A DNA stretch of 56,664 nucleotides from an uncultured virus (IMG/VR IMGVR_UViG_3300034023_001061). Its lineage: Duplodnaviria > Heunggongvirae > Uroviricota > Caudoviricetes. A program made the position numbers and the translations under genes. The stretch lies in the IMG/VR virus record IMGVR_UViG_3300034023_001061. One strand, 5' to 3'. The notes beneath the pieces were generated by a model, which saw only the letters and a program-made list of their open reading frames with translations, was not told the DNA's origin and did not search any database. Shown here in pieces: positions 5,931 to 54,503 of this stretch; the stretch's first letter is position 1; each line of letters begins with the position of its first letter.

Positions 5931-6239
5931 TCACCGCGGGAGTTTCCCGCGACCGTACTTCGCGCCCGCCGTGCGGAGACTATCGATAAACGACGGGCCG
6001 CGCTCGGGGATGTTCTCCATGCGGTACACCTCGCGGTCGAGCGCATTCAACTGCGCAGCGTACCTCGACACCGAGGGCCAGTCGCGTCGCTCCAGCGCGA
6101 TCGTGAGCGCCTCGTGGGCGTCGGAGGCTTGCCAGCGAAGGCTCGCGAGCCGCGATGCGTGCGACGTGACGTTCATCGGGCGCGTGCCGCGCTTGCGCTT
6201 CGGGTTGTGCGCCGCGGTGCGCTTCTTCGAGGTTGCCAT
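5931..6239 (-). CDS. Basic-tag protein (MATSKKRTAAHNP)
   Basis: Class C leaderless promoter; basic N-terminal tag ending in NP. Confidence 0.7.
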   Translation of the reverse strand: MATSKKRTAAHNPKRKRGTRPMNVTSHASRLASLRWQASDAHEALTIALERRDWPSVSRYAAQLNALDREVYRMENIPERGPSFIDSLRTAGAKYGRGKLPR

Positions 6240-6335
6240 GCCGTGACACTACACGAACGCAGCACCCCGCGCAATCGGCGAACAATCGCACACGGGCCGT
6301 AAGGTCGGCGGCGCTCGATGCGTAGAAGGGGCACT

Positions 6336-6668
6336 ATGAACGACGACGCATTCACCCTCGATATGATCGCCGCACTGCGCGAACTCGCGGACTGGAACTA
6401 GCGCGAGGAGGCCGAGTGCACGCTGCCTCGCAACACCTCGTTCGGCCTTCTGCGAGCGCGTGGTCTCGTCGCGACGAACACTACGGTTTGCGTGCACTAC
6501 CATCGAAGCACGGGTGAGACGACTTCGTTCGTCTCGCTCCGCGCGTGGCTCACGCCGAAGGGCCGCGCTGCGTGCGAGGCCATCTTCGGGATCACGCCAG
6601 TAGCGGACCGTCCCGACGCCGACGCGATACGCGCCGCCGAGCCAGTTTCCGTCACGAAGAACTACTGA
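6336..6668 (+). pseudogene. Winged-helix-like gene interrupted by an in-frame TAG at 6399-6401
   Basis: Class B promoter, ATG 6336; reads MNDDAFTLDMIAALRELADWN*REE...LRARGLV...WLTPKGRAA; resembles 158-391. Confidence 0.65.
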
Positions 6669-6681
6669 CGGCGAACGTCCG

Positions 6682-7227
6682 CTAGTGCACCGACTCGGGT
6701 GCGTCGCCGCGCTCGATGCGCGCCTTGATCTGCTTGCAGATCGCGGTGAGCGTGTCGGGCGCGAGCGGCTTCTCGTACGCGCCCATCGCGCTCACTGTCC
6801 GCGCTGCACGTTCCAGTTCGTCGGGCATCGCGCCGGTCACGAAGTACACCGCGACGCCGCGGGGGAGCGCGTGGGCCACGGTGATGCCGTTGTGCTGCGC
6901 GTGGCGGAGGTCGAGGTCGATGATCGCCGCCGCGAAGTCGCCCACGTCGGCCCGCTGCGCCGCGTACATCGCGTCGTCGGCGGTGCAGCACACGACCGTT
7001 TTCGTCCCCGTCTCCTCGCCGACGATCCCCGCGAGTTGCGTCGCGAGAAACTCGTCGTCTTCCACGATCAGCACACGGGGCTGCGGGTGAAGCGCCTCGA
7101 TCACGGCGTGCAAGCGCGCGATGCTCTCGGTGAGCGTCCCGATCGCAGCGTTCTTCGCGTTGAGTGCCCTCGCGTATCGGGCCGCGAGGTCGTCGGTGAT
7201 GGGGTCGGTTTGTGCGTCGGCGGACAT
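6682..7227 (-). CDS. Orphan response-regulator receiver (CheY-like) with N-terminal coiled coil
   Basis: RVLIVEDD, AIIDLDL, VTG and EKP receiver motifs. Confidence 0.88.
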   Translation of the reverse strand: MSADAQTDPITDDLAARYARALNAKNAAIGTLTESIARLHAVIEALHPQPRVLIVEDDEFLATQLAGIVGEETGTKTVVCCTADDAMYAAQRADVGDFAAAIIDLDLRHAQHNGITVAHALPRGVAVYFVTGAMPDELERAARTVSAMGAYEKPLAPDTLTAICKQIKARIERGDAPESVH

Positions 7228-7617
7228 CTAGCGTTTGCCTCTCGGCAATGATTCAATTACGCGGGCGGCGCTGTCAAGCGCGGCAATACCCTTAGTGATG
7301 CTCTCCATCTCGTCGATGCGCTGCTCGGTGACGCGCGCGAGAGCCTCCGCATGCGACGTTTGCAAGGCTTGCACAGTCGCCGCATGGGCCGCGTGAATCG
7401 CTTGAACTCTATCGCCGTGCTCCTTGTCGCGCGCGTGGATCGCCTCGTGCAGCGCGGTGTTCTGCCGCGCGTGGTAGACCACCACGCCGATCAGAACCCC
7501 GATGACCGCCTTCGATCCGCCCGCGTCGATCACCGCCCACAACGCGGGTGAGACCTGCGCGAGAAATGGTAGCGCGGGGAGCATGGGCACGAGTGTTTCG
7601 AGCATTACGCGAACCAC
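7228..7617 (-). CDS. Small membrane protein with coiled-coil tail (holin-like topology)
   Basis: Hydrophobic AVIGVLIGVVVY followed by coiled coil; start uncertain. Confidence 0.55.
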   Translation of the reverse strand: MVRVMLETLVPMLPALPFLAQVSPALWAVIDAGGSKAVIGVLIGVVVYHARQNTALHEAIHARDKEHGDRVQAIHAAHAATVQALQTSHAEALARVTEQRIDEMESITKGIAALDSAARVIESLPRGKR

Positions 7618-7674
7618 GATAACACACGCGCGGCGCGGTTGAATAGTGCGAACGGTGGTCCCGTCTCACCCACC

Positions 7675-8425: not shown

Positions 8426-8510
8426 GCGCGATCGTCGAGGGCTTCGGGTGGCTTCTGATTTCGGTCGGCGTTCTCAGCGCGATTCGCGGGTGGTTCGTCG
8501 GAGGCGCGAA

Positions 8511-8831
8511 GTGAAACGTCCGTCCATCAGCGATTCAAGCGATCCCGACGATCGCCACATCTGCGATAACGCCGCCGCGGACTACCGGGATTATGAGTCG
8601 CATCTTCGCGACGCGATCCGGCAAGCGACGGAGGCGCTGGCCTTCTGGCATGAGCACGGCGAACCGATCCCAGGACTCCTCGTGGATGCGCAACGTTCGA
8701 TCGGTGCAGCTATCGTCAAGGGCGCCTACATCACCGCGCGGGCGCCGTTCGTTTCCGAAGAGGATCACGCGCGGTTCAAGATGTTCGGCGCGAAGCGCAA
8801 CGGTCGCAAGGTCGGTGAGGTGGTCAAGTGA
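8511..8831 (+). CDS. Hypothetical protein
   Basis: GTGA overlaps with both neighbours. Confidence 0.55.
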   Translation: MKRPSISDSSDPDDRHICDNAAADYRDYESHLRDAIRQATEALAFWHEHGEPIPGLLVDAQRSIGAAIVKGAYITARAPFVSEEDHARFKMFGAKRNGRKVGEVVK

Positions 8832-13591: not shown

Positions 13592-15562
13592 TCACTTCGG
13601 GTCGGTCACGAGCGATGCGGCGTTCGGGTCGGTGTTCGGGTCGCCCTTCGCGCGAGCAATGGCCTCGGCGACCTTCTTCGCCTTCTCCGCGGCCTTCTTG
13701 CGGGCATCCTCGACGGCCCCGTAGAGCGAGGCGACGCCCTTGATGGCGTCCTTCTCGCGCTTGTTCAGCGACGCCCACCCGATGCTCGCGAGCTTCATGC
13801 ACGCGAGGGCCAACGTCTCGTGCTGGTTCCCCTTGTTGTTGAGACCCTCACCGTACGCGGTGGCGAACCGTGCGCCGAGGGGCTTCTCGGCGAACTGCAC
13901 GGGGACGCGGGGCGTGCCGCTGCCGGTCACCGCGTCGGGCGACTCGCGCTCGGTGCGCTCGCCGTTGCCGCCGCCCGAACGTTCGCCGCCGCCCTCGTCG
14001 TCGCGATCGTCGACCGTCGAGTTCGACACGTACTCCGCGGAGGCGCGGCGGGTCGCGATCGCGTCGCGAACGCTCGTGGCGCCCGCGGCGATCATCTCGG
14101 CGACGATGCGGCTCACCTCGTCGGGCGAGGCGCCGTTGCGGCACACTTGCAGGACGGCGTTGATCGAAATCGCGTCGCTGAACACCGCGTCGATCACGTC
14201 GGCGTTCTGCATCGAGAGGCGTTGCCACGAGCGCACCACGTTCTCGGTCCGGTTGACGTGGCGAGCGATCTCGCCGTACGGAGGCGCGGGCGCCTTCGCG
14301 TCGTTGCGGTGGGCCTTCGCCCACTCGCCGATGCGGTGCATCGCCATCGTGTAGAGCCCGCGCTCGCCGATCACCTTGCGCCCGGTGTTTTCGAGCATCA
14401 CCTCGGCGGTGTACTCGTCGGCGTTCGCGGTGCCACGCCCGCCGCTCATCACCCTGAAGTCGGGGCGCCAGTTGGCGCCGAGCGTCTCACGGCGCTCCGC
14501 GACCACCGCGCGGAGGGCCTTCACATCGCGGGTGCCCGCGAGGCACTCCCACACGATCGCCCACCACACGAGGCGCGAGCGCCCGACCTTCGTGTAGACG
14601 TTCGTGTCGCCCTTGATCTGAACCACCTTGGGCTCGGTCTGCTGCCCGTCGATGAGCACCGAGAGCAGCATGTTCAGGTGATGCGCGGCGCGGTAGTGAC
14701 CGCTCGCGATGAAACCGTCGGTGTCGGCGTAGAGCGCACGGAGCTCCGAGGCGTCGGACGCGTCGGGGTCGACGAGTCCGCGGGTCGCGTCCGTCGGGGC
14801 GACGAACAGCCCGCCCTCGACGCCTTCCGCGACGATCTTGATGTCCTTCGTAGGGTCCGCGAGGGCCGGAACGCCCTTCGCCACGTTGCCGATGTTGCAT
14901 GCCTGCTTCGTGATATCCATGTCGTCTTCTCCTGCCCCTTCATACGCTCCCGCCGTCGGGATTCTTTCATCGACGTGACCGTTTTCTTCTCCGCGCATCA
15001 CTTCGGCGTACGCGCGCCTCGCGTGAAACAGTCGCGACATCACCGTGCCCTTCGGGATGCCTTGCTCCGCAGCGATCGCGGTGTACGCCTTGCCGTTCGC
15101 CCGCGCGATCAGCACGTCACGGTGGGCGGGCGAGAGCGTGTGGATCGCCTCGACGACGCGGGCCTCGTGCTCGCGATCCTGCGCGACGGCGCACGGGTCC
15201 GTTTCGTCCGCGGTCGTGGGCAACTGCGAGTCGTCGCAGTCGTCGATAGAAACCGCGAGAGACGCTTTACGATTGCGGCGGTGGTGGTCGATCGCGAGGT
15301 TCGCGACGATGCGATAGAGCCACGTCGCGAACGATGCACGACCGTCGAACTCGTCGAGGTGACGCCACACGCGGAGAAACGATTCCTGCACGATATCGTG
15401 CGTCGCTTCGGCGTCGCGGCACGCCCCGAACGCCATCGCGCGGGCGCGCGGCGTATGCCTCCTCACCAGTTCCGTGAACGCGGCGCGGTCGCCCGAACGG
15501 GCGCGATCCACGAGTTCACGGTCGTACAACGCCCCCTGCGCAGACTCGGAAACAGCACCCAT
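13592..15562 (-). CDS. ECF sigma factor fused in frame to a ParB/Spo0J-like protein (internal start 14920)
   Basis: Sigma region 2 (DIVQESFLRVW, FDGRASFATWLYRIVANLAID) and region 4 (GIPKGTVMSRLFHARR); then GQQTEP..GRSRL, ENTGRK and HTH EIARHVNRTENVVRSWQRL. Confidence 0.85.
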   Translation of the reverse strand: MGAVSESAQGALYDRELVDRARSGDRAAFTELVRRHTPRARAMAFGACRDAEATHDIVQESFLRVWRHLDEFDGRASFATWLYRIVANLAIDHHRRNRKASLAVSIDDCDDSQLPTTADETDPCAVAQDREHEARVVEAIHTLSPAHRDVLIARANGKAYTAIAAEQGIPKGTVMSRLFHARRAYAEVMRGEENGHVDERIPTAGAYEGAGEDDMDITKQACNIGNVAKGVPALADPTKDIKIVAEGVEGGLFVAPTDATRGLVDPDASDASELRALYADTDGFIASGHYRAAHHLNMLLSVLIDGQQTEPKVVQIKGDTNVYTKVGRSRLVWWAIVWECLAGTRDVKALRAVVAERRETLGANWRPDFRVMSGGRGTANADEYTAEVMLENTGRKVIGERGLYTMAMHRIGEWAKAHRNDAKAPAPPYGEIARHVNRTENVVRSWQRLSMQNADVIDAVFSDAISINAVLQVCRNGASPDEVSRIVAEMIAAGATSVRDAIATRRASAEYVSNSTVDDRDDEGGGERSGGGNGERTERESPDAVTGSGTPRVPVQFAEKPLGARFATAYGEGLNNKGNQHETLALACMKLASIGWASLNKREKDAIKGVASLYGAVEDARKKAAEKAKKVAEAIARAKGDPNTDPNAASLVTDPK

Positions 15563-15647
15563 GCGCCGCTTGTCGCACGCATCGTAATACAACGCAACAA
15601 AAAGCGTGACGTTGACGCGAGCGCCAAACGTAGGCACAATCGCCCGT

Positions 15648-15854
15648 ATGTCGAAGAAGGTGAAGAAGCCCGCGGTGGCGGTGGTCGAGAGCGAGCGGCC
15701 GACGGTGGCGTTGAACCTGCGGATCACGCCGTCGCTCTCGCGTCGCCTCGACTGCGAGGTGAAGCGTGTGCTAGCGGAGCGTCCGGGTGCGGTGATTTCG
15801 AGGTCGGATGCGGTGCGGGAGGCGCTCGCGCGGGTATTGCCCGCGGAGGCGTAG
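15648..15854 (+). CDS. Ribbon-helix-helix-like DNA-binding protein
   Basis: VALNLRIT..L..RLD...SRSDAVREAL; TTGACG-N17-CACAAT-N7-ATG; divergent from the sigma gene. Confidence 0.7.
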   Translation: MSKKVKKPAVAVVESERPTVALNLRITPSLSRRLDCEVKRVLAERPGAVISRSDAVREALARVLPAEA

Positions 15855-16187: not shown

Positions 16188-17702
16188 TCACGCGGCGGGG
16201 TTGATGACGAGGAACGCGATCGCGTAGTTCGTCGCGCCGGGGGCGCCGGAGAGTTCGATCGTGATCGTGTCCAGCGTGGGCACCGCCCGACGGATGTTCA
16301 CGGAGTTCGACGTTGCGGTCTGCATGTTCACGAAGATGAGCGACGACGTGGTGACGAGGGTGTTCGAGATCGTGAGCGTGGTCGCTGCATCATCGGTGAA
16401 TGTCACCACGCCGCTCGTCGCGTTCAGCGTCGCGCTGGTTACGCCCGTCGCGGTGCTGCTCCATGCGACGATGCCCGAGAGCGCGCCCGAACCGACTCGC
16501 TCGACACCGAGTACCGTGAGGGTGTCACCGGAGTCACGGAGCATCGTGCGCCCCGCTCCGCGAGGGCGCAGGGAGAGCGATACGTCAGCGCTGCCGGTCG
16601 CCGCGGCGTAAGGCGCGATCGACACGCCGCTCGTGACCGCTGCGGCGTTCGTGGCGGGGAGCACTTCGAGGCCGTTGAGGAGCGCCGCCGCCGCCGAAGG
16701 CGCTCGCGTGCGGATGCCGACCGACGCGAGGGTGCCCGCGAACGCGGGCACGATATCGACGCGCCCCTGCTCCGCACCGGGCGTCGCGACGGCCATGCCG
16801 CCCGAGACCTTGCCCATCGCCACGGGCGCCCCACCAGCGGGGAGTTCGACCTGAAACGCGATGGCAGTTCCGAAACCCGCCGCCGTCGTGCCCGACGACA
16901 GATGATTCAGGACCAGCACGTTCGTGTCCGTGTTCGTCTCCGCGTCGGTGCCGATGTACCCGAAACCGTCGGTCTGCATCCGCGCGGCGAGCACGCCACC
17001 GAGCGAGAATGCGATCGACGTGGCGTCGAAACGGTACGCTCCCGTTCCGGGTGACGCGGCGAACGACCACGACGGCTGCGCGTCGGTGCCGTTCTGCGCG
17101 TAGATGCTCGCGGAGAACGTCGGCGTCGCGCCGAGGATCACTTCGGTCGCCGACTTCGCGACGCCGATCTTCTGCACCACGGCGCCCGCGGTCGTCGGAG
17201 CGGTCGTCGTGGCCGTGCCCGCGGTCTCCGAGAGGTACACCGTCGCGCCGGGGGTGAACGCCCCGCCGCCAGTGATCGTGGCGCACTCGCCGAACTCGCG
17301 GACGACGCACGTCAGGGTGTCGATCACGTCGACCACGACGCCGAACGCGGGGAGCGTACCGTCGGAGGCGTCGGCGAGCACGACCGAGTTCGGGTTGATG
17401 CCCTTCGCGACGAGGTTTCCGACCGCGACGAGACTCGCCGTGTTCGAGAAGATCCCATCCACGCCGTCGACACCGCCCGACCCCGAGGAGAGCAGGACGA
17501 TGCGGTTGCCCGAGAGGTACGTGCCGGTCGACCCCTTGTAGTAGAGGGCGTCGTTTTCGTCGACGAAGACGAGCGTGCCGCGGAGCATCTGGTTGAACTG
17601 CGCGATGAGGGCGGCGCTGGCGCCTTCCTTGCCGGGAACTTGCGCCTCCGTGTCGACGTAGACGTTGAATGGGGATTGCGGACGCATTGAGGGGAGTGCC
17701 AT
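16188..17702 (-). CDS. Virion fibre/decoration-like protein
   Basis: G/A/T-rich beta protein with ADAS...FGVV...FTPGATVYLSET.G..TTTAP...VQKIG.A module; class C promoter. Confidence 0.65.
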   Translation of the reverse strand: MALPSMRPQSPFNVYVDTEAQVPGKEGASAALIAQFNQMLRGTLVFVDENDALYYKGSTGTYLSGNRIVLLSSGSGGVDGVDGIFSNTASLVAVGNLVAKGINPNSVVLADASDGTLPAFGVVVDVIDTLTCVVREFGECATITGGGAFTPGATVYLSETAGTATTTAPTTAGAVVQKIGVAKSATEVILGATPTFSASIYAQNGTDAQPSWSFAASPGTGAYRFDATSIAFSLGGVLAARMQTDGFGYIGTDAETNTDTNVLVLNHLSSGTTAAGFGTAIAFQVELPAGGAPVAMGKVSGGMAVATPGAEQGRVDIVPAFAGTLASVGIRTRAPSAAAALLNGLEVLPATNAAAVTSGVSIAPYAAATGSADVSLSLRPRGAGRTMLRDSGDTLTVLGVERVGSGALSGIVAWSSTATGVTSATLNATSGVVTFTDDAATTLTISNTLVTTSSLIFVNMQTATSNSVNIRRAVPTLDTITIELSGAPGATNYAIAFLVINPAA

Positions 17703-28933: not shown

Positions 28934-28936
28934 GGG

Positions 28937-43186: not shown

Positions 43187-43246
43187 GCGACTTGTACGAG
43201 CGGAGCGAGCGAGTTCTTTACGTCGCCTCGCCGATTTCGTCGGCGG

Positions 43247-43807
43247 TCATCGCTTGCCGCCCGCGGTGGCGGGCAGCGTGTTCGTGAGCGAGTGCGTGCG
43301 CCCGACGTTCTGCGCGGCGCGGAGCGCACTGAGGAGGTGCGGCGCCACCACGCCGCTCTTGCGGCCCTCGACGGGCGGGAGCGGCATCGCTGCGAAACGG
43401 TAGCCGTTCTCCACCGTCTCGAACAGTTCCGCGAGTTTCGCGCGGTGGTGCTCGTAGAGTTCCACCGCGGAGAGAACCGCCGACTCCGAGCCGCGGAACT
43501 TCGTGGTCTTGCCGTCGGTGCGAAACTTCTCGTTCGCTCGCCCACGGTAGAGGGTCCGCCCGATGCTGAATGCCGCGCAGCCCGCGAACACCGCGCAGTG
43601 AACCGAGAGGCGCTCCTCGTACTCGTGCGCGTACGTTACGCACTGCTCGATCTGCGGTTCGCTCTCGGGGATCGACACTTCGGCGCCGTACTTCGCGATG
43701 TAGCGATCCATCACGCGGCGCGCGTTCTCGCGCTCCTCGGCGGTGGCGGTTTCGCACGACGCGATGGCGTGCAGGCGGCGGAACGTTTCGCGCGGGTTCT
43801 CACTCAT
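43247..43807 (-). CDS. DUF2786-like protein
   Basis: RRLHAIA...T.EE.ENARR.M....AKYG. Confidence 0.6.
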   Translation of the reverse strand: MSENPRETFRRLHAIASCETATAEERENARRVMDRYIAKYGAEVSIPESEPQIEQCVTYAHEYEERLSVHCAVFAGCAAFSIGRTLYRGRANEKFRTDGKTTKFRGSESAVLSAVELYEHHRAKLAELFETVENGYRFAAMPLPPVEGRKSGVVAPHLLSALRAAQNVGRTHSLTNTLPATAGGKR

Positions 43808-43879
43808 CTTGCTCTCCCAACGCCGCGAGCCCGCACCGCGCGAGTTGCGCAGGTACGGGCGTCGTGGCGGCGGCGTGCC

Positions 43880-44083
43880 TCACTTCGTGATGCGGACGAC
43901 CTTCCACCCCTGCACGCTGGCGTTCATGCGGAGGAGGCCGTGCGCCGCCTTGCCCGCCGTCATGCGGACCTTGCCACTCTCGTCGATGGCGGCGATCCAC
44001 CCGGCCTTCGGGGCGCGGCCGAAGCAACCGCGCATATCTTCGAGTGCCTTCGCGAGCGAAACCGTGTCGGTCGTGTTCTTCAT
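43880..44083 (-). CDS. Hypothetical protein
   Basis: ATG 7 nt after class B motif. Confidence 0.6.
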   Translation of the reverse strand: MKNTTDTVSLAKALEDMRGCFGRAPKAGWIAAIDESGKVRMTAGKAAHGLLRMNASVQGWKVVRITK

Positions 44084-44130
44084 GGTGTCTCTTCTACGCC
44101 CGTCGGGGCGCCGTTCTTTACGACGCCCGA

Positions 44131-44358
44131 TCATTTTTCCGCGCAGTGCTCGCAGTCGCACGGCTCGGCGCTCACCACGTCGCGCAGGAGCGCCGCTACG
44201 GACTCGCGGTGTACGCAGTGCGTCCCCTCGTACGCCCACCCCGGACGCAACTCCGCCCACAAGCTAGGCACTTCATCGACCGTCTCGTCCCACGCCGAGA
44301 GAACGCGCGGGTGCGCGAGGATTTTCTGCCACGACTTCGTTTTCGTAGGATTGCGCAT
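44131..44358 (-). CDS. Hypothetical protein with C-terminal CxCxxC
   Basis: ATG 5 nt after class B motif. Confidence 0.6.
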   Translation of the reverse strand: MRNPTKTKSWQKILAHPRVLSAWDETVDEVPSLWAELRPGWAYEGTHCVHRESVAALLRDVVSAEPCDCEHCAEK

Positions 44359-44427
44359 GCGCAGTTATACGCACCGCAACGACCCGCTTCTTACACGCCC
44401 CCGAAGTTTTCTTCGAGCGGGCAGAGC

Positions 44428-45477
44428 CTACCGCGTGCGGCGCCGCACGGACCGGCGACCGTTCTGCTCGCTCCTGCGGTCGTCGGGCAACTGGCCCACC
44501 GAGAACAGGTTGCGGTCGGGTTCGCCCTCGCGCGGGAGCGGGCGCTTGCGCCAGTACATCACGAGGCGACGGAACGCATCGAGTTCCCGCTGCGCAGACG
44601 CGATCGTGGCTTCGATGCGCTCGCGGTCGAACTTCTTCGTCGCGTTCTCGGCGGCGCGCTGCATCGACTCGATCAACTCGCCGAGCGCGGCGACGTTCTT
44701 CACCGTGCCCGCGGGCGACAACTCGAAGGGCGGGAACGCAACGCCGTCGCAACGTCCCTCGATGCCGCCCTGATAGCGGGGGCGCTCGTAGCCGTGCAGC
44801 ACCATCACGGGGAGGTCGCCGCGCCCAGCTTCGAGCTTGATGTTGCGGAAACACACGGGGCACGTTCCGGTGTTGTCGCGAGTCCGCGCCTCCGCGGGAA
44901 CGTGCTCCTCGACGTTCAGGAAACGATTCACGCGCGCAACCCAGTCGGTCTCTTCGTCGAGCCACGAGGTCAACTCGTACGTCGAGACACCGGGCGCGCG
45001 ACGCTTGCGACCGCTGGTTACGTCTACGACGTAGGTGCCGTGGCCCCGCATCGGCAGAAGCTCCACGGACTTGCCGTCGAGCGATGCGCGGATCGCGTCG
45101 ACCGCGACGACGCCCTCGTAGGTGACGTACCAGTAGCCATGCGCGACGTCTTCGGCGCTTCGGCGAACGTCGGAGAGGAACACGGCGCCCGACTTGAACT
45201 TCGCGGGGATCTTGTCGACCACGCGAGTGCGGAGCGCGCTGGCGAGCGTCGCGAAACTCTCTTCGTCGTCGGCGTATGCGTGCGCTGGCCTGTTGTCTCC
45301 GACGCGAGCGAGCGCGACGAACTCCTCCGCGTGCCCACCGATCGCTTCGAGAACCGCCGCCAGTTGCGCGAACGTGAGCGATGCCGTCGCGCCCTTGCGG
45401 ATCTTGAGCATCACCTCGCGCAACTTGTCGTCGGAGAGCGGCTTGCCGTTGCGGACGTGGTGTCGCGTGTTCTTCAT
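44428..45477 (-). CDS. Basic-tag protein with Zn-finger (CPVC..HGY..C.G)
   Basis: N-tag HHVRNG; C-tag EQNGRRSVRRRTR. Confidence 0.7.
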   Translation of the reverse strand: MKNTRHHVRNGKPLSDDKLREVMLKIRKGATASLTFAQLAAVLEAIGGHAEEFVALARVGDNRPAHAYADDEESFATLASALRTRVVDKIPAKFKSGAVFLSDVRRSAEDVAHGYWYVTYEGVVAVDAIRASLDGKSVELLPMRGHGTYVVDVTSGRKRRAPGVSTYELTSWLDEETDWVARVNRFLNVEEHVPAEARTRDNTGTCPVCFRNIKLEAGRGDLPVMVLHGYERPRYQGGIEGRCDGVAFPPFELSPAGTVKNVAALGELIESMQRAAENATKKFDRERIEATIASAQRELDAFRRLVMYWRKRPLPREGEPDRNLFSVGQLPDDRRSEQNGRRSVRRRTR

Positions 45478-45523
45478 GTCCGTCCCCTTTATGCCCGATG
45501 CGCAGTGCGCCCGCAATGGCCGA

Positions 45524-45916
45524 TCACAACGCCACGCCCGCGGCGTCGTACCACCGCACGGCGCCGACGCCCGACAACGTGAGGTCGTCGATGGTGCCGA
45601 ACGCCGCGCCTTGCGGCACGCCGTTGTGCGCGCGATGCTCGCGGAACACGGGGTCGAGCACCCACCCATCGAACGACGGCGAAACGATCACGGGCAAGCG
45701 CACGCACTCCGCGGCGGTGAATTGACTGCCGAGCGATACCAGTCGCCCCGTGATGCTCCGTGGTTGCGCGAACCACGAGAACGCACCTTCGCTGCGCTGG
45801 TGTCGCCCCGCGTGAACGCGGCGCACGTCGTCGGGCTCGATGCGAACGTCGGTGATCCCGAGTGCGGCGACGATGGTGTTGAGTCGGGCGGCGAGGCGCT
45901 CGCGTGTGGTCGGCAT
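45524..45916 (-). CDS. Hypothetical protein
   Basis: TGAAT-N17-CGTC upstream. Confidence 0.6.
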   Translation of the reverse strand: MPTTRERLAARLNTIVAALGITDVRIEPDDVRRVHAGRHQRSEGAFSWFAQPRSITGRLVSLGSQFTAAECVRLPVIVSPSFDGWVLDPVFREHRAHNGVPQGAAFGTIDDLTLSGVGAVRWYDAAGVAL

Positions 45917-45964
45917 ACGCTACCGACGTGCGCTGCGAGCGCCGTATTCAGCGGGAGCGCGGCA

Positions 45965-46540
45965 TCAGGGGCGCCCGGTGCCCCACCGGATCTGGCCGAA
46001 CTTGCTCCGCACGCTGGCCGCGGTCATCACCGCGACGCGGCTCGCGGGCACGCCCTCTTCGACCATCGCCTTGCGCTCGTCGACCGCATCCTCGCGGAAC
46101 TCGTTGCCCGCGTGCACGAGCCCGGTGACCTTGTCGACGACGTAGTAGCCGTACTTCGCGCGACCGTTGCGGACGCTGGTGCGCTTCTGAACCGACACGA
46201 CGTTCTTCCATCCGACGATCGGAGTATGCCCGAGAGCCCTCTGCTTGACGCCGGTTGCCTCGCTGCGCTTGCGCGATGACGTTCGACGGGCGAGCAACCA
46301 CTTGATGCCTTCGCTCGGATTGCTACGATCAGTGATCCACGCGGTTGCGGAGTACACGCGACCATTCTTCGACGCATATGACACAGTGTCACCGAACTCG
46401 ATGCTTCGCATGAGCGATTGCGCTTCGTCTCGCGTCATACCATCGGTTCGTTCAGCGAACCTCGCGTCGTAGACGCTACCGTTGCGGACGGAGGCGAACT
46501 TCGCGGGGCGCTTCTTCGGAGACTTCTTCGTGGTTGCCAT
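45965..46540 (-). CDS. Two-domain basic-tag protein
   Basis: SVRNG occurs twice; class C promoter. Confidence 0.7.
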   Translation of the reverse strand: MATTKKSPKKRPAKFASVRNGSVYDARFAERTDGMTRDEAQSLMRSIEFGDTVSYASKNGRVYSATAWITDRSNPSEGIKWLLARRTSSRKRSEATGVKQRALGHTPIVGWKNVVSVQKRTSVRNGRAKYGYYVVDKVTGLVHAGNEFREDAVDERKAMVEEGVPASRVAVMTAASVRSKFGQIRWGTGRP

Positions 46541-46578
46541 GCTGCGACGCTACACGAACGCCGCCAGAACGCAACCGC

Positions 46579-47736
46579 TCAGTCGCTTCTGCGTCGGCAC
46601 GGTGGCGAACGCTTGATGCCAGCCTCGTGCAGAACCGCCGCGAGTTCTTCGAGCGCGCGTTCGTCCGCATCGTCGCGACGCGGGTTTCGGGCGAGCCGCG
46701 TGTAGAGGTCGAGCGTGTTGCTGAGACCTTCGGGGTGCAGGCGGTCGATGCCGTAGAAGGCTTCGTAGAGCTCACTGGCCGTCTGCAACCGAGGGTCCGC
46801 GACGTTGTGCATCGCCTTGCCGTCGCGGAGCACCACCACCTCGTCGCCGCGCAGGCCGCACAGCGTGAGCGGCGCCTCGACGCCCGCGATGAACGTCATG
46901 CGCGGGAACGTGGCCCGCACGCGCTCGACGAGCGTGACTTGCTCCGCGGGCGGGAGGTGCGCGTCGATCGCGTCGATGATGCACACGCCATCCATCGCGG
47001 CGTAGAAGTCGGCGGGCACCGTGCGCCCCGCCTTGACCTCGCGCACCACCCACCGGGCGCACAAGTCGGCGACCCACGCGGCGATGCCGTTCGCGCCGCT
47101 CCCGAGGCGCCGCAGGGGCACGCCGTCGACCTCGACGTGATCCTCGCCCATGCGGACTCGCTCCGCGCCGAGAATCGCCGCCAGCGCGCCGCACGTCCCG
47201 TCGTACGCGCCGCCGTAGAGCGCGGCCCACTCCGACTCGCCGACGAACGAGGCGATGCGTAGCAGTTCCGCGAGAACGTGTCGCGGTCGCAGAAGGCACG
47301 CCCGGTCGCCGAACACGGAACCGATATGCCGCCACCCGTTGAAGCCGTCGCAGTCGTCGAGGCGGTTGTCGCCCACGTTGTCGTCGCGCACGCGGTCGGC
47401 GCCGTACGCGACGAAGAACCCGCAGAACGTCGGTTCCCGAGACTGCACCGGGTTCCAGTGGGCGCCGTCGCGGGAGAAGTACGTCGCGAACGGTTCTTCG
47501 CCCGTATTGATGATCGCCATGCCCTCGCGGCACCCGTCGCGTACGATCGGGTAGATCGGTCGCGTCGGCGCACCCGCGTAGACGTTCGGCCCTGCGAGCG
47601 CGACGGCGGCGCCTCGCAGCGCGGACGTGACGCCCTCGCCGACGAGCGCGAGGAACTGCCCGCCGCGAGCGGGCGGGAACCGTACGCGAACGTCGGCGAA
47701 CGGGCCGATGTTGTGCAGCCGGAGCGAGCCGATCAC
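46579..47736 (-). CDS. ABC/OLD-like (AAA_21-type) ATPase with degenerate Walker motifs
   Basis: LRLHNIGPF, VAYGA.R, LGSG, IIDAIDAHL; Walker A reads GEGVTS. Confidence 0.75.
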   Translation of the reverse strand: MIGSLRLHNIGPFADVRVRFPPARGGQFLALVGEGVTSALRGAAVALAGPNVYAGAPTRPIYPIVRDGCREGMAIINTGEEPFATYFSRDGAHWNPVQSREPTFCGFFVAYGADRVRDDNVGDNRLDDCDGFNGWRHIGSVFGDRACLLRPRHVLAELLRIASFVGESEWAALYGGAYDGTCGALAAILGAERVRMGEDHVEVDGVPLRRLGSGANGIAAWVADLCARWVVREVKAGRTVPADFYAAMDGVCIIDAIDAHLPPAEQVTLVERVRATFPRMTFIAGVEAPLTLCGLRGDEVVVLRDGKAMHNVADPRLQTASELYEAFYGIDRLHPEGLSNTLDLYTRLARNPRRDDADERALEELAAVLHEAGIKRSPPCRRRSD

Positions 47737-48122
47737 GGCGCCACCGGAGCGGGAACCGCGGCGGCGATGGCGACGGTCGCCATCGTGTGGTGGGCGATCT
47801 TCGCCCACTCCGCGTTGATCTTGCTCGCGAGGGCGGTGGCGTCGAGCGCCGTGCGCTTGCCGTGGAACACCCCCGCTTCGATCGCGGCCTTCGCCTCGCC
47901 GAGACCGAAGCCGGTCGCCGCGCGGAGCGCCTTGATCGCGTCGACCCTGCTGTAGCGCCCGGTGCAGTTCGTGTAGTCGGGCGTCGTGAACGCGACGACG
48001 TACACGGTCCCGGCGTGGGTTTTCGCCGCGAGCGTGTACGCCTCCGCGAGCACGGCGTCGCGGTCGGCGGGCGTGAGGCAGGCGATCGCGGTTGCGAGTT
48101 CGGTGAGGTTCGGCGTGTTCAT
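47733..48122 (-). CDS. Ribosomal L7/L12 C-terminal-like protein
   Basis: RVDAIKALRAATGFGLGEAKAAIE. Confidence 0.75.
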   Translation of the reverse strand: MNTPNLTELATAIACLTPADRDAVLAEAYTLAAKTHAGTVYVVAFTTPDYTNCTGRYSRVDAIKALRAATGFGLGEAKAAIEAGVFHGKRTALDATALASKINAEWAKIAHHTMATVAIAAAVPAPVAP

Positions 48123-50385: not shown

Positions 50386-51072
50386 TCACCGGCACCTCGC
50401 CACGACGATCGAGCAGTTGTCGTCGCCGCCCATCGCCATCGCTTCGTTGTGCGCATCGACGGCGAAACGTTCGATATCGCCGCCCGACGCATCCCACAGC
50501 GACGCGATCGTTTCGTCGTCGATCATGCCGTGCAGCCCGTCGGAGCATAGCATCACGGCGTCACCGGGGAGCGTGGCGATGCGCGCGATCGTCGGTTCCC
50601 ACGCGACGCGACAACCGCCACCGAGGCATCGCGTGAGCATGCTCTGCACCGCGTGGTCGCGCGTGAGTGAGATCGCGTTTCCGCGCCGCAGAAGGTACGC
50701 CCGCGAGTCGCCCGTGTGACCCACGACGACGCATCGCTCTTCGACGCGCACCGCCACGAGCGTGCAGCCCGCATCATCGGGCACGAGCGCCACCGTGCGC
50801 TGCGCGAGTCGGAACGCCTCTTCGAGCACGCCCTCCGCACGTTGCGACCGCACGCGCTTCGCGTAGTCGAGGAACGTTCGCACCGCCGCCTCGGAGGCGA
50901 CTTCGCCGTGAGCGTGCCCGCCCATGCCGTCGGAGAGAACGAGAAGCTCTTCGCGGATGCCCACGCAGTCTTCGTTGTTCGTGCGCACGCGACCCACCCC
51001 CGTGAGCGCGACGGCGTTTGTCTCGCGGACGATTCTCGGAGCGGGCGCGACGGGCAGTCGCAGTTGTCTCAT
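50386..51072 (-). CDS. PP2C-family Ser/Thr phosphatase
   Basis: GRVRTNNED, SDGMGGH, GDSRAY, LTRDH, CSDGL, GGDDN. Confidence 0.95.
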   Translation of the reverse strand: MRQLRLPVAPAPRIVRETNAVALTGVGRVRTNNEDCVGIREELLVLSDGMGGHAHGEVASEAAVRTFLDYAKRVRSQRAEGVLEEAFRLAQRTVALVPDDAGCTLVAVRVEERCVVVGHTGDSRAYLLRRGNAISLTRDHAVQSMLTRCLGGGCRVAWEPTIARIATLPGDAVMLCSDGLHGMIDDETIASLWDASGGDIERFAVDAHNEAMAMGGDDNCSIVVARCR

Positions 51073-51095
51073 AATGGCGACCACGATAACACCGA

Positions 51096-51650
51096 TTATC
51101 GCGGCGCGCGAGTCACCCGATCGTACGCTTCGACGATCGCCGGGAAGTCGGCGCGGTACGTGCCCTCCGTGAGCAGTTGCTCGCGCGTGCTCCACACGGC
51201 CTCGCCTTCGGCGCCGCCACGCAGTCGTGCGCCGCTGGCGACCTCCGCAGCGAACACCGAGCAGCGGTGCCCGCCGATGCTCGCCACGAGCACGAGGCGC
51301 AGGTTGATCGCCTCGACGCCGCCCTCTTCGCGTGCCTCTCGCACCGCCGTCTCTTCGGGCGACTCGCCGGGTTCGGCCTTGCCGCCGAGGAGTTCCGGTT
51401 GCCCGTTGTGCTTGCGCGACTTGATGGTCGCGAAACGTCCGTTGCGCTCGATCAGCACGCACGACGAGAGCGTCGCCGGTTCGCACGGCGGCACGGGTTG
51501 ATCGTCGGCGCTGAATCGCGTTACTGCGTCGCGCGAGTAGACGTTGAACGTGCGGTACTTGCGCCCGTTGTCGAGGCGCTCCGCCCACCGTGCCAGCGCG
51601 CAGTTCGCGCATTGCCACACGCCACCGGAGCGTTTCCATGCGTGTCTCAC
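51096..51650 (-). CDS. Nudix hydrolase
   Basis: GGKAEPGESPEETAVREAREEGG Nudix box. Confidence 0.92.
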   Translation of the reverse strand: MRHAWKRSGGVWQCANCALARWAERLDNGRKYRTFNVYSRDAVTRFSADDQPVPPCEPATLSSCVLIERNGRFATIKSRKHNGQPELLGGKAEPGESPEETAVREAREEGGVEAINLRLVLVASIGGHRCSVFAAEVASGARLRGGAEGEAVWSTREQLLTEGTYRADFPAIVEAYDRVTRAPR

Positions 51651-52222: not shown

Positions 52223-52676
52223 GTTGCCTCTCGATTGCTGTTGCGATGCGCGTCACGCTGCGAACGTAGATCGCCGAACGTAGGCGCGCTCTACGATATC
52301 TACGCCCGCGAGGCACCGCGCATTCACCGAACTGGTAACGATTCAACGCCCGCGGTGTAGCGCGACAACGGCGCAGGGCCGACGCGAGCGACCGGGCGGC
52401 GCACGTCGCCTGTTGCCAGTCGTCGGTGCCGTACGGGTTGCACGCCGCCAGCGAAGCCCGCGCGTTGCGTAGCCGGTAGCCCGACTCGACGAACACGATC
52501 GCGTGCAGCGTGGCGCAACGTGTGACGCCCGCGTCGGAGCAAGCGTAGTCGACCATCTTCGCGCGCACGACGAACGTGTCGCGGGCCAGCGGGTCGTGCA
52601 GCGTGCGGGCGACGGAGGGGAACAGCGCCGAGAGCGCGAGGGCGACCGCGTGGGCGGTGGGGAGGGAGACGGTCAC
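52203..52676 (-). CDS. SLT-like lytic transglycosylase with N-terminal signal
   Basis: AIVFVESGY...ALNRY; class A promoter. Confidence 0.6.
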   Translation of the reverse strand: MTVSLPTAHAVALALSALFPSVARTLHDPLARDTFVVRAKMVDYACSDAGVTRCATLHAIVFVESGYRLRNARASLAACNPYGTDDWQQATCAARSLASALRRCRATPRALNRYQFGECAVPRGRRYRRARLRSAIYVRSVTRIATAIERQLEQVRH

Positions 52677-52707
52677 TCCGAGTAGACGCGAGTGACGGGG
52701 CGGGGAT

Positions 52708-53211
52708 TCAGCGGCGCGACTTCTTGGGCTTGCGGGCGACGCGCTTCTTGGGCGTGTTCGCTTCGAGCCACTCGTCGAGGTCCGAGTCGTTGCGAACGGA
52801 CGAACTGAGTCCGTACGCCTTGCCGTTGTAGCCGTCGAGCCAGAGGATCATGCCGCTCGCGGTGATGTAGGGCGCTTCGTCGTAGCTGCGACCTTCGCTG
52901 TCGAACACGTCGCGGAGGCGCTGCACGTCGGCCACGCTCTCGACGGAGTACGGCACGGAGAGCACGTCTCCGCCGTCGTACGAGCCGCCGTTGATCTGCC
53001 GGACCTTCGCCTTCTTCGCGACCGCTTCGGACGCCTTCTGTTCGAGCGCCATCACCATGCTCGTGAGGTCGTCCATGTGCGGACGCTTGTACTTCTTGAG
53101 CAGCCCCTTCGCGAACTTCTTCGCGTCGGCGTCGCGATCACCCTTGGCGTCGTCGTCGAAGTTGTCTTGCTCGAACGTGAAGTCGACCGTGCAAATCGCT
53201 CGTGTGAACAT
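52708..53211 (-). CDS. Hypothetical protein with basic C-terminal tail
   Basis: TTGACA-N18-TCCGAT-N6-ATG. Confidence 0.65.
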   Translation of the reverse strand: MFTRAICTVDFTFEQDNFDDDAKGDRDADAKKFAKGLLKKYKRPHMDDLTSMVMALEQKASEAVAKKAKVRQINGGSYDGGDVLSVPYSVESVADVQRLRDVFDSEGRSYDEAPYITASGMILWLDGYNGKAYGLSSSVRNDSDLDEWLEANTPKKRVARKPKKSRR

Positions 53212-53332
53212 ACCCGCATCGGAGCACGGGAGGGGGGGGGGTGTCAACGGCGAAAACGTCGCTACGCGGGGAGCGCGTGGCGGGGATTCGCGGCGCTTGC
53301 CCGTGCGCGGCGTGCTCGCGTAGAGTCGCACG

Positions 53333-53854
53333 ATGCTCACCCGCAAGCCCGCTCGCCGACGTTCGCTCCTCAACCCGGAGCCGACGATTCTCTACCCCGA
53401 CGGGATGCGCCCGGTGCGAGCCCCGTTCATCATCGGCGCCGAGTACAGTTTCGACAACTTCGTCGATGGCGTTTTCGTACTGAGGTTGGGGTATCGCGGG
53501 GCGGCGTTCGTGCTCGATCGTGCTGGCGCTACGCCGCAGACAGGCGCGGGGCCGGTGGGCATCCACGACGAGGCGGAGTTCTTCGCGATGAAGCCTCGCC
53601 TCGTTCGCGTAGACCGCCAGCGGATTGCATACGACGTGCAGAGCGTTTACACGCCGCTGCTCGACCCCGACGATGATCCTCGCGAGGCCGTGAGTCGCAG
53701 CGCCGAAATGTTCGCGCACATCACGGGCACGAAGAAGGTCTCGCTCGGTCGCACGAAGGCGTCGGTTGAAGCCGCGCGCAAGCAACTTCGGCGCGACGTT
53801 CGCGCCTTCGCCGAAGCGAACCGCATCGACCCGTACGAGGGCCGCGCCCTCTAG
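53333..53854 (+). CDS. Basic-tag protein (MLTRKPARRRSLLNP)
   Basis: TTGCCC-N18-TAGAGT-N6-ATG. Confidence 0.7.
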   Translation: MLTRKPARRRSLLNPEPTILYPDGMRPVRAPFIIGAEYSFDNFVDGVFVLRLGYRGAAFVLDRAGATPQTGAGPVGIHDEAEFFAMKPRLVRVDRQRIAYDVQSVYTPLLDPDDDPREAVSRSAEMFAHITGTKKVSLGRTKASVEAARKQLRRDVRAFAEANRIDPYEGRAL

Positions 53855-53882
53855 GCCGCGCCGACGCCGTGGATTCAGTGGT

Positions 53883-54503
53883 TCAGAATCCGGGGTCGAA
53901 ATCGTAGGCGAGCGCGAGACTGTACTCGCGGTGCTTGATGTCGAGCTTCATGCGCTTCGCCGCCGCTTCGATGGCCTTGCGGTCCTTCGGGTGTACTTCA
54001 TCCCACCGCAGCCCGCGGGAATGGTGCGCCGTTCCGCTTACGCGAGCCACGTTGCCGTACCGATCGTTCCCGAGTTTTCGGGCGAGCGCGCGGAGCTCGA
54101 TGAACTTCTCGTCGTCGAGCTTCGCCTTCGCCTCCTGCTTCGCCTTCGCGGCGAGCCCCGCGGGCGAACGGCAGTAGTCGCACGGGCCTGCCCAGTGCCC
54201 GGTGTCTTCGTTGTAGCCTGCGTCGCACTCACACGCGGTCGGAGCGGCCTTCGGCTCGGGCGCGAGAAGCGATTCGGGCGACGCGCCTACGGACGTCATA
54301 CGCATCGTACCGCCGCCGGATACGGCGTACCACGATCCGATTTTGTAACGCTCACCCATCGTCTTGCGCGCAAACTTGCGTGCGCCAGCGAGGGTCTTGA
54401 AGTGTCGCGTCGCACTGTACCCGTCCGACGACTTGAGATAGATGGTGATCTCGCCGGAGTTGCGAACCGAACGTCGGACTCGCGTCTTGCTTTTCTTGCT
54501 CAT
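53883..54503 (-). CDS. Basic-tag protein (MSKKSKTRVRRSVRNS)
   Basis: TTGTGC-N17-TATGAT-N8-ATG. Confidence 0.7.
   Translation of the reverse strand: MSKKSKTRVRRSVRNSGEITIYLKSSDGYSATRHFKTLAGARKFARKTMGERYKIGSWYAVSGGGTMRMTSVGASPESLLAPEPKAAPTACECDAGYNEDTGHWAGPCDYCRSPAGLAAKAKQEAKAKLDDEKFIELRALARKLGNDRYGNVARVSGTAHHSRGLRWDEVHPKDRKAIEAAAKRMKLDIKHREYSLALAYDFDPGF

Follow-up and report, generated by a model that had tools for sequence, protein, structure and literature searches.

The window analysed here is a stretch of 56,664 nucleotides from an uncultured virus of the Caudoviricetes (IMG/VR record IMGVR_UViG_3300034023_001061), and corresponds to bases 18653-75316 of a single 87,860-bp virus-record contig with a G+C content of about 67%. 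It codes for proteins that share a short Arg/Lys-rich peptide centred on an asparagine, hereafter the tag, which occurs as an N-terminal leader, as a C-terminal tail or as a spacer between domains. About one fifth of this phage's proteins are built from modules bounded by this spacer. Coordinates are those of the window, in which features lie on the minus strand unless stated otherwise; the prefixes L001: and L002: denote parts of the contig outside the window.

Since the high G+C content generates hundreds of spurious open reading frames (ORFs), genes were predicted with our own codon-usage caller trained on the contig. It returned 147 genes on the whole contig, 89 of them inside the window, with heuristic start codons; for two genes the starts of the initial annotation (32015 and 45477) were taken over. 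Statements below on what was recognised refer to Pfam and PHROGs comparisons of these 147 genes. A tyrosine integrase and an Xre repressor lie at the left end of the contig, and a lysozyme/tape-measure-like domain, a phage phosphoesterase, a UvrD-type helicase, PP2C, Nudix and a class-V aminotransferase were also recognised. The window belongs to the probably incomplete genome of a tailed, probably temperate phage. The contig is not closed and ends inside the second copy of an IscB element, hence the genome probably continues beyond it. Viral-contig scans of IMG/VR recovered two contigs of identical sequence (87,611 and 46,603 bp) and no others. Megablast of positions 28000-48000 against deposited phages and plasmids revealed no close DNA relative, and scans for related loci gave none among metagenome contigs and, among genome contigs, only one weak match (23% identity) in a Rhodothermales metagenome-assembled genome.

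Distribution of the tag

Of the 22 sites listed in the initial annotation, 13 are leaders at the N-terminus, 5 are tails at the C-terminus and 4 lie inside proteins; direct translation returned all of them. Below, a slash follows the asparagine. At low coordinates, the leader MATSKKRTAAHN/P opens gene 5931-6239 (site 6201-6239; a sigma70-like -10 lies 6 nt before the ATG), a probable but weaker C-terminal tail, GAKRN/GRKVGEVVK, closes the plus-strand gene 8490-8831 (8787-8828), and KRSPRKRRRPYTRN/G, from a GTG start, opens gene 18042-18806 (18759-18806). Twelve tagged genes then form one co-oriented block (28937-46540), which two phrog_23837 virion structural genes follow directly downstream on that strand.

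Within the block, gene 28937-30052 begins with MPAKRRARRALRN/D (30011-30052), 5 nt downstream of the promoter motif CGTGTAACGTC. The kinase-like gene 30109-31164 has both the leader MKPRRDTRSCARN/P (31123-31164) and the tail QRRRKAAKN/GSSRNRLRS (30112-30165). Gene 31161-32015, whose start is that of the initial annotation (our caller placed it at 31946), begins with MNSRRVTRPSAHN/P (31974-32015) and contains REAEKN/GRGAATRRPA at a candidate junction (31542-31589). Gene 32012-33205 carries all three forms: the leader MPATRVRRRATGN/P (33164-33205), preceded by the promoter motif, the internal spacer REAQKN/GRRSMKATKA between its first and its fused second module (32336-32383), and the tail SQKN/GRRSARKAGSR (32015-32059). 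In gene 35432-36481 the spacer SKRAGRRAQKN/GRST (36092-36136) joins a first domain, here called the head module, to a second one. The tag RPGSVRRSQRN/G of gene 37095-37670 (37530-37565) is of N-type, although its asparagine is residue 46, behind a Cys-rich stretch. Gene 37667-38263 ends in ERRRAERN/GSRRMGKHRR (37670-37723), and gene 38307-39302 extends from a GTG-initiated leader, RTPKRTARRSFPN/A (39258-39302), to the tail RRRAATN/GRRAARRSAAKPRKAPRSRR (38310-38390). The UvrD-type helicase gene 39299-41650 (UvrD-helicase, Pfam 7.6e-23) begins with MRRSARRSPRIVRSRKSHRN/G (41588-41650), and gene 44131-44358 with a weak, minimal leader, MRN/P (44347-44358), comparable to MKRN/P and MTRKN/P in relatives of the kinase-like protein. 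Gene 44428-45516, which starts at 45477 or 45516, has the leader MKNTRHHVRN/G (45445-45477) and the tail DRRSEQN/GRRSVRRRTR (44431-44481). Gene 45965-46540 has the leader MATTKKSPKKRPAKFASVRN/G (46478-46540), preceded by the promoter motif, and VQKRTSVRN/GRAK at a candidate junction (46154-46192). Beyond the block, the plus-strand gene 53333-53854 begins with MLTRKPARRRSLLN/P (53333-53377), again behind the promoter motif, and gene 53883-54503 with MSKKSKTRVRRSVRN/S (54456-54503).

Under a strict definition of the N-terminal tag (N-[GPS] at residue 30 or earlier, with at least four R/K in the preceding 12 residues), 14 of the 147 genes carry it, against a mean of 0.97 (maximum 5) in 500 whole-protein shuffles and of 2.44 (maximum 8) when only the first 30 residues are shuffled. 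The same definition is satisfied by 11/516 interior 30-residue windows (2.1%) and by 8/470 alternative-frame ORFs (1.7%). The strict C-terminal tag (N-G in the last 18 residues followed by at least three R/K) is found in 7/147 genes, against means of 0.44 in whole-protein and 0.89 in terminus-only shuffles, and in 2/470 alternative-frame ORFs. The enrichment over background that the initial annotation had proposed to check is therefore real, the tag standing far above chance in shuffles, interior windows and alternative frames. Curation by eye of the whole contig gave 21 N-type and 16 C-terminal or internal sites on 28 of the 147 genes, 16 of them inside the window (17 counting the minimal leader of 44131-44358); an uncurated, mechanically chosen set gave the same pattern. 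A looser pattern also returns probable false positives, e.g., inside the Nudix domain.

In an all-versus-all BLASTP comparison, only two paralogue groups join tagged genes with one another, and two more pair a tagged with an untagged gene. The tagged proteins are thus largely unrelated, as had been claimed. The untagged gene 5324-5929 (+) pairs with 32012-33205 (28% identity over 199 residues), and the untagged L001:3898-4413 (-) with the tagged 53333-53854 (+) (35% over 158 residues). In addition, the otherwise different tagged proteins 37667-38263 and 38307-39302 have a common 47-residue segment (55% identity; 69 nt at 92.8% DNA identity), which suggests an exchange of sub-modules between the two.

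Several tagged genes appear to have promoters of their own. The motif CG[TC]GTA[GA][ACG]GTC occurs five times on the contig (window 30068, 33222 and 46556 on the minus strand and 53317 on the plus strand; L001:1846 on the plus strand), each time 5-6 nt ahead of the ATG with which an N-tagged gene begins. Some of the five are preceded, about 17 nt upstream, by a TTGCG-like -35, and they lack a Shine-Dalgarno sequence; together, motif and -35 look like sigma70-type promoters giving leaderless mRNAs. In a promoter scan of the contig, a TAnnnT hexamer was found 5-9 nt before the start of 17/147 genes, namely 6/19 strictly tagged genes vs 11/128 others (Fisher p 0.011).

Anatomy of the spacer

Numbering from the asparagine as position 0, R occupies position -5 in 19 and position -4 in 11 of the 21 curated N-type tags; position -3 is S in 13 and A in 4, position -1 is R in 14 and H in 3, and position +1 is P in 9, G in 6, S in 4 and D or A in one each. 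The N-type tag is a position-specific R-R-[S/A]-x-[R/K/H]-N-[P/G/S], so that the tag itself stands while its earlier description, a basic patch followed by N-G or N-P, was too loose. The 16 C-terminal and internal sites have A (8) or S (7) at -3 and R (6) or K (5) at -1, and are invariably followed by G at +1 (16/16), then by R at +2 (11) and +3 (8) and by S (5) or A (4) at +4. In 18 linkers of the head-module family, for which the first N-[GPS] beyond a conserved anchor was taken mechanically, the counts are R 13 at -5, R 11 at -4, A 9 and S 4 at -3, K 7 and R 6 at -1, and G 10, P 7 and S 1 at +1.

The stretch that follows a C-terminal or internal N-G repeats the core of the N-type tag, and all forms are therefore parts of a single unit, N-G-R-R-[S/A]-x-[R/K]-N-[P/G/S]. 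The spacer is complete when it links two modules within a polypeptide. If separate genes encode the modules, the upstream protein ends in its first half (N-G-R-R-S-x-R, then a stop) and the downstream protein begins with its second half (Met, extra basic residues, then R-R-S-x-R-N-[P/G/S]). A whole spacer with two asparagines is found on the contig in L001:12135-12881 (DN-GRRSAP-NG) and in the relatives P0027 (QQN-GRAAKRRPAAR-NP), P0053 (LN-GRRRSGRAKR-NT) and P0020 (RN-GRRAHR-NG).

The 21 leaders are 6-49 residues long, with a net charge of +3 to +20, and none has a hydrophobic core of the Sec or Tat type, eight-residue windows holding at most five and mostly one to three hydrophobic residues. 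A Sec or Tat signal was dropped from consideration on this ground, as were 2A-type ribosome skipping and N-glycosylation sequons, whose motifs do not match by eye. The longest leaders (46478-46540, MATTKKSPKKRPAK; L001:1863-2012 on the plus strand, MATKKKSTRKRPSK; and L002:5064-5141 on the minus strand, MATTRKSPKRAAARKPAAKRR; each given by its beginning) contain SPKK- and KPAAKR-like strings, which we take to resemble DNA-binding tails of the histone H1 type.

That the conservation lies at the peptide level, as first proposed, is supported by three observations. First, the words of the tag are mostly read in frame: R-N-G occurs 21 times in frame, 12 times in other sense frames and 6 times antisense; R-R-S-x-R-N 5 times in frame and once antisense; and N-G-R-R 6 times in frame, once in another frame and twice in stretches called intergenic. 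Only R-N-P is unskewed (7 in frame, 2 in another frame, 7 antisense and 2 intergenic). Second, codon sharing at shared residues is close to the expectation from codon usage, with 431 observed vs 432.7 expected for C-terminal and internal sites and 263 vs 218.9 (ratio 1.20) for N-type tags. Finally, the Gly after the asparagine uses all four codons (GGC 7, GGG 9, GGT 5, GGA 2). One pair of leaders, those of 45965-46540 and of the gene starting at L001:1863, is a true DNA repeat of 85 nt. An IMG/VR scan with back-translated Q-K-N-G-R-R-S gave 19 loci, two of which are this phage; the other 17, including L006 with its real genes on the opposite strand, were rejected as non-coding frames or chance matches.

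Modules are joined and exchanged at the spacer

In four unrelated families of homologues, the location of the tag is exactly that of the module boundaries. For gene 32012-33205, the five homologues (58-90% identity, 279-291 residues) all have a basic leader ending in R-N-[P/T], and all five stop after N-[G/P] and a basic tail at the position of the internal site of the window protein. Asn13 and Asn280 are invariant in all six sequences, the most distant being 58% identical, whereas neither the length nor the sequence of the tails is kept, which points to selection on the Asn. The window protein has gained a second module that ends in the same kind of tail.

The head module of gene 35432-36481 is present in 18 of its 21 homologues, and in 18/18 the spacer comes next, ahead of a second module that differs among relatives, with about a dozen kinds as judged by eye, unclustered. 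In P0014 and P0018 the downstream module is ART-PolyVal (Pfam 5e-12 and 2e-15). In P0015 it is the module of the window gene 37095-37670 (BLASTP, 78% over 152 residues), and this homology begins at the R-R of the tag, the parts upstream being unrelated. Two other homologues have only the second module, preceded by a basic leader that lacks Asn.

An exhaustive HMMER search with the kinase-like protein 30109-31164 retrieved 123 representative clusters (116 at E<=1e-10), many of them within proteins of 500-2183 residues. In an alignment of 60 of the 123 clusters, from which most of the very long and the weakest matches were left out, Asn occupies the exact N-terminal boundary of the module in 42 of the 50 rows that reach it. 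The next residue is P in 30 of the 42, S in 5, D in 3, T in 2 and M or A in one each, and at least two of the eight residues preceding the Asn are R/K in 32. The boundary Asn lies at an internal junction in 16 relatives and behind a leader of 3-35 residues in 26. Joints downstream of the kinase module read R-R-N/P, R-E-N/P, R-S-N/P or P-N-P-N/G, and in P0027 (87% identical) the whole spacer joins the kinase to a module on its upstream side for which this contig has no counterpart.

The fourth family delimits the reach of the tag. For gene 44428-45516, an orthologue at 91% identity retains both tags, leader and tail, whereas 23 distant homologues (27-39% identity) start at the conserved core, e.g., three residues before it, with neither leader nor Asn, and end without N-G and tail; several of them are fused to other modules, one to InPase. 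Furthermore, small PHROG families that stand alone start where internal tags lie. In the three-module protein L001:13180-14100, what follows the tag at residue 169 corresponds to two small genes that marine podophages encode separately.

The placement of the tag at module junctions, previously read from single sequences, is thus borne out by comparison, the same modules being found fused and unfused exactly at the tag, and modules are swapped between relatives exactly at the spacer. Since orthologues keep their tags, distant homologues lack them and paralogues occur both tagged and untagged, the spacer is a lineage-specific appendage that travels with the modules and marks their borders.

Module repertoire and structure models

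The tagged modules comprise a kinase-like module, an ADP-ribosyltransferase-related one, the helical head module, the UvrD-type helicase and many unknowns. The model of the kinase-like protein is of high confidence (predicted local distance difference test, pLDDT, 91.3; predicted template modelling score 0.88), and its family alignment has an invariant Gly-loop, Lys, Glu, Asp and D-x-G. All top Foldseek matches of the model are protein kinases (probability 1.00, E about 1e-6), with template modelling scores of only 0.3-0.45. Pfam domains were found in six of 25 large kinase relatives (SNF2 with Helicase_C, C5 DNA methylase with ddrB-ParB, NUDIX, ART-PolyVal and PAPS reductase) and none in the other 19; 12 further relatives yielded only an InPase domain, in P0153. 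A ParB-like assignment of P0011 made by eye was unconfirmed by Pfam. Proteins in the window hold one to three modules (e.g., 32012-33205 and 35432-36481), and relatives reach 2183 residues. Pfam at E<=1 gave no usable match for 25 tagged or large proteins. Atlas look-ups of ORFs 36481-37062 and 16188-17702 returned scores of 0.80-0.88, to be read as leads only.

The head module also occurs in a Nodularia-phage protein (Hva1_TUDOR, head module, InPase), a RefSeq "minor head protein" encoded just after the terminase and portal genes, and as a small "putative DNA-binding protein" of phage PaBG. A fold search against 48,161 chains gave no clear match for it (best Z 4.8, root-mean-square deviation 3.0, 80 residues aligned). 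A MuF (Phage_Mu_F) domain had no Pfam match among the contig proteins and relatives scanned.

By their domain content, the tagged modules belong to the repertoire of the "polyvalent proteins" (Iyer, Burroughs, Anand, de Souza and Aravind, 2017), which are predicted to be packaged or transferred with phage DNA and processed by peptidases (PMC5512222). The effector-type character initially attributed to the proteins, that of a delivered repertoire, is supported to this extent.

The initial annotation had proposed structure models as a check on domain boundaries, and these speak in part for it. Model numbering is protein numbering minus 1, because the minus-strand reference sequences lacked the start codon. 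In the model of 35432-36481 the head domain (pLDDT 75-91) ends with helix 103-119, and the Asn of the tag (model residue 125) lies in the low-confidence stretch beyond, followed by a poorly modelled second module. Likewise, the last helix of the kinase model ends at residue 327, and the tail holding the C-type Asn is poor (pLDDT 64 and 50). On the N-terminal side of the kinase, on the other hand, the first ten residues have a mean pLDDT of 54 whereas the block 11-20, which holds R-N-P, has 91; here order begins at the Asn, and low-confidence leader and tail lie on either side of a confident fold.

A candidate processing and sorting site

The position specificity of the tag (R at -5, a small residue at -3, an invariant Asn, then a small residue or Pro), repeated on unrelated folds and on either flank of modules, suggests that a single protein reads it. 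A basic peptide with two identical sites between modules, whose halves are left on the products of split genes, moreover has the appearance of a processing site. The delivered-effector type of the repertoire, the precedent of the T-even leader and the position of the co-oriented block next to virion structural genes speak in the same direction. The reading we prefer, with a probability of about 40%, is that the spacer acts as a sequence-specific processing or sorting site, recognised by a single protein of phage or host origin that is most likely an endopeptidase. Such an endopeptidase would trim leaders and tails and separate fused modules, each of which would mature to the same product irrespective of its fusion partner. 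It would cut after the Asn or between R-R and S/A, the latter being as good a candidate as N/[G/P] since C-terminal tails correspond to the first half of the spacer; the small Ser or Ala after R-R would fit a protease subsite better than a phospho-acceptor. The extra basic stretch would anchor the precursors to DNA or to an acidic partner in head assembly, and they would ride with the genome into the next cell. The role would be analogous to that of the internal-protein leader of T-even phages, with another sequence, at both ends of proteins and also as a joint between domains.

Several observations weigh against this reading. Neither a peptidase of any kind nor capsid, portal, terminase or scaffold genes were recognised on the contig, which is probably incomplete. 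A motif scan for proteases returned two HExxH and two HxxEH strings, about the chance level, and the Atlas look-up of one HExxH-bearing gene gave nothing. Pro follows the Asn in 9/21 N-type tags and in 30/42 kinase relatives, and Pro at P1' blocks or hinders most endopeptidases. Some kinase relatives have leaders of only three to five residues (MKRN/P, MTRKN/P), too short for a binding patch. In the kinase family, N-P-x-R-A-E-R is conserved and modelled as ordered (pLDDT 91), so that the Asn may belong to the fold. The low-G+C polyvalent protein of the Nodularia phage, a cyanophage, has the head module and lies by the portal gene, and is devoid of basic-Asn joints. Finally, the predicted sigma70-like promoters of several tagged genes would suit early or moron-like expression as well, rather than late co-expression with head genes.

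A fuller version of this proposal is more doubtful. The spacer N-G-R-R-S-x-R-N-[P/G] might be the portable plug of a sorting-and-processing system, the modules that it flanks being loaded with the phage DNA and freed by Asn-directed cleavage, either by a peptidase of new specificity or by slow self-cleavage at Asn-Pro and Asn-Gly in the virion. If true, it would explain how polyvalent proteins are freely built and dismantled across more than 100 protein clusters.

Among the alternatives, an uncleaved linker or tail survives best, although we hold it to be unlikely. Disordered nucleic-acid-binding arms, similar to those of histone H1, would tether enzyme modules to DNA or RNA, Asn-Gly and Asn-Pro would cap helices at their C- and N-terminus, and the terminal halves would be remnants of fusion and fission. 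The charge of the leaders and their lack of hydrophobic stretches suit such arms, as do the SPKK- and KPAAKR-like strings with their presumed H1 likeness and the annotation of the PaBG homologue of the head module as DNA-binding; helix-favouring residues precede the C-type sites (A/S at -3; E/Q/A at -2), the Asn segment is ordered in the kinase model, and no protease was found on the contig by Pfam, PHROGs or the motif scan. However, electrostatic arms require neither R at -5 in 19/21 tags, nor S/A at -3, nor an Asn that is invariant on both sides; the same modules have distant homologues that fold and function with neither cap nor arm; and very short leaders such as MKRN/P, which cannot bind nucleic acid, retain the Asn.

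The spacer could also be a site of regulatory modification, which we regard as improbable. R-R-S-x-R would be phosphorylated by phage kinases and restored by PP2C, or Arg would be ADP-ribosylated by an ADP-ribosyltransferase and cleared by an ADP-ribosylglycohydrolase, providing the proteins with a joint on/off switch. The contig does code for a kinase-fold protein with all catalytic residues and for enzymes of reversible protein modification, namely PP2C (50386-51084, 4e-13), Nudix (51096-51620), an ADP-ribosylglycohydrolase (L002:134-583 on the minus strand, 2.7e-19) and, by eye only, a second kinase-like protein with a Gly-loop (L001:6878-7621 on the plus strand). ART-PolyVal occurs in relatives, and an Arg-flanked Ser at -3 is found in 13/21 tags. 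Yet Ala replaces this Ser in 4/21 N-type tags, 9/18 head linkers and 4/16 C-type sites, a change incompatible with a phospho-acceptor; it is Asn and not Ser that is invariant, and a switch gives no reason for a location exactly at every module boundary.

Two further alternatives are very improbable. One is an export or transfer signal for a secretion machine of the host or of an element, in the manner of the Arg-rich C-terminal signals of type IV secretion. Arg-rich C-terminal tails do exist here, and polyvalent proteins are also found on conjugative elements that use type IV secretion (PMC5512222). Relaxase, coupling protein, VirB4 and other secretion genes are, however, absent from the recognised genes of the contig. 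The record is viral, and its genes include those for virion structural proteins, an integrase and a phage phosphoesterase; most tags are N-terminal or internal, and the leaders have no Sec or Tat core. A leader for the cargo of a contractile injection system was rejected as well, no sheath, tube or baseplate genes being recognised. The other is a DNA-level linker, kept as homology for module shuffling and functionless as a peptide. Modules do shuffle at the spacer, even between relatives 87% identical, codon sharing of the N-type tags is slightly above expectation (1.20) and one leader pair lies in an 85-nt DNA repeat. Against this, codon sharing of C-terminal and internal sites equals the expectation, Gly uses each of its four codons, most of the words are read in frame on the sense strand, orthologues keep the Asn unchanged as its neighbours drift, and a unit of about 20 nt is short for homologous recombination.

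An artefact of composition or gene calling, with Arg-rich N-termini arising from over-extended starts or spurious frames at 67% G+C, can be virtually dismissed: high G+C does make spurious ORFs Arg-rich, starts are heuristic and 8/470 alternative-frame ORFs pass the N-tag test, but 14/147 genes stand against 1.7% of such ORFs and 2.1% of interior windows, and the orthologues have the same leaders in public databases, where genes were called independently. In most leaders an in-frame start directly behind the Asn is lacking, the promoters abut the ATG of the leader, and no start-site error can produce internal and C-terminal sites.

Relation to known systems

By function, the closest parallel to the spacer is the internal-protein leader of T-even phages; by architecture, it is the junction motifs of polymorphic toxins; and the proteins themselves are closest to polyvalent proteins. 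The internal proteins of T-even phages (Ip1-3, Alt) are non-essential, fast-evolving and otherwise unrelated, and have in common only an N-terminal leader that directs their packaging and has served to list their repertoire (PMC12373910). The initial annotation had drawn this analogy, and it is apt (PMC12373910): here, too, a short N-terminal peptide is found on otherwise unrelated proteins, with a repertoire of counter-defence type. The leaders themselves differ, those of the contig being Arg/Lys-rich and ending in R-N-[P/G/S] ([R/H]-N) rather than in the T4 consensus. The T4 leader is hydrophobic and acidic and is cut after Glu, at the (L/I)-x-E site of the gp21 protease with which its consensus ends. 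In addition, the tag also occurs as a C-terminal tail and as an inter-domain joint, and T4-type prohead protease and head genes were not recognised on this probably incomplete contig.

Polyvalent proteins occur in phages and conjugative elements, where cassette-like small ORFs lie beside large fusions (PMC5512222). The proteins described here resemble them in their domains (ART-PolyVal, the distinctive kinase, InPase, ddrB-ParB, SNF2, methylase and NUDIX), in their phage context (a virus record with integrase and virion structural PHROGs) and in the coexistence of small stand-alone cassette ORFs with larger fusions. They may differ in size, most having one to three modules, with relatives of up to 2183 residues, where polyvalent proteins have 2-15 unrelated domains per polypeptide, and no domain of the zincin-type peptidase (MPTase) was matched by Pfam on this incomplete contig. 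The main text of PMC5512222 does not contain the terms "linker", "arginine-rich", "basic residues", "low-complexity" or "disordered", and its three passages on "asparagine" concern active sites.

The MuF-toxins of temperate phages are polymorphic toxins (PMC5576092). With such toxins (CdiA, Rhs, MuF), the head-module family (18/18) shares the arrangement of a conserved N-terminal domain, a short conserved junction peptide and a hypervariable C-terminal module that close relatives exchange exactly at the motif. The junction motif of CdiA is VENN. The motif described here is another one, lies at either border of modules and also opens genes with a single module, and Pfam finds no MuF domain. In the maturation of ejection proteins of giant phages (phiKZ-like phages, the prohead protease of SPN3US), many different head-internal proteins are trimmed at one short consensus by one protease, much as the spacer would be cut if it is a processing site. 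Their cleavage sites, however, are not known to be Asn- or Arg-based, and a head-internal location of the contig proteins is hypothetical.

Self-cleavage at N/P is exemplified by switch proteins of flagella and type III secretion systems. More generally, Asn-Pro and Asn-Gly are contexts in which Asn attacks its own backbone in the asparagine peptide lyases (PMC3207474), Pro being no obstacle, but the known cases require a folded catalytic environment, whereas the sites described here flank unrelated folds. No description of the spacer was found in the literature searched, which took in neither subscription journals nor the supplements of PMC5512222. The spacer, with its location at both ends of proteins and between domains, matches none of the known motifs.

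Polyvalent proteins and phage-delivered effectors constitute a large and mostly unexplored arsenal against bacterial immunity. On the delimitation, exchange and release of their domains, the founding paper goes no further than to propose processing by peptidases (PMC5512222). A position-specific spacer would give a sequence handle for listing the effectors of such phages, much as the T-even leader did for the ip genes, and a concrete, mutable site for processing and virion loading. It could reveal a new protease or self-cleavage specificity, and might serve as a portable tag with which capsids are loaded with cargo or cleavable fusions are built. Even as a DNA-binding linker only, it would still explain where and how these proteins recombine.

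Other features of the contig

Two IscB-like genes (RRXRR 6e-63 and 6e-64, with HNH) lie at 55052-56434 and at L002:10945-12312 (-), both within a 1.65-kb repeat (84% identity) in whose second copy the contig stops. Rfam and tRNA scans of the window revealed no RNA family and no tRNA, including at the IscB-like gene of the window. The gene 13592-15727 encodes an ECF-type (extracytoplasmic function) sigma factor (regions 2 and 4, residues 86-237) with an unexplained extension of about 470 residues. On the plus strand, genes 2969-3280 and 3949-4278 are 96% identical over 103 residues and lie within a DNA repeat of about 437 bp (94.5%), as part of a small cassette-like duplication. Finally, the two phrog_23837 "virion structural" paralogues downstream of the tagged block (21881-23836 and 24051-27245; 651 and 1064 residues) have a common N-terminus and many internal repeats at 70-80% DNA identity.

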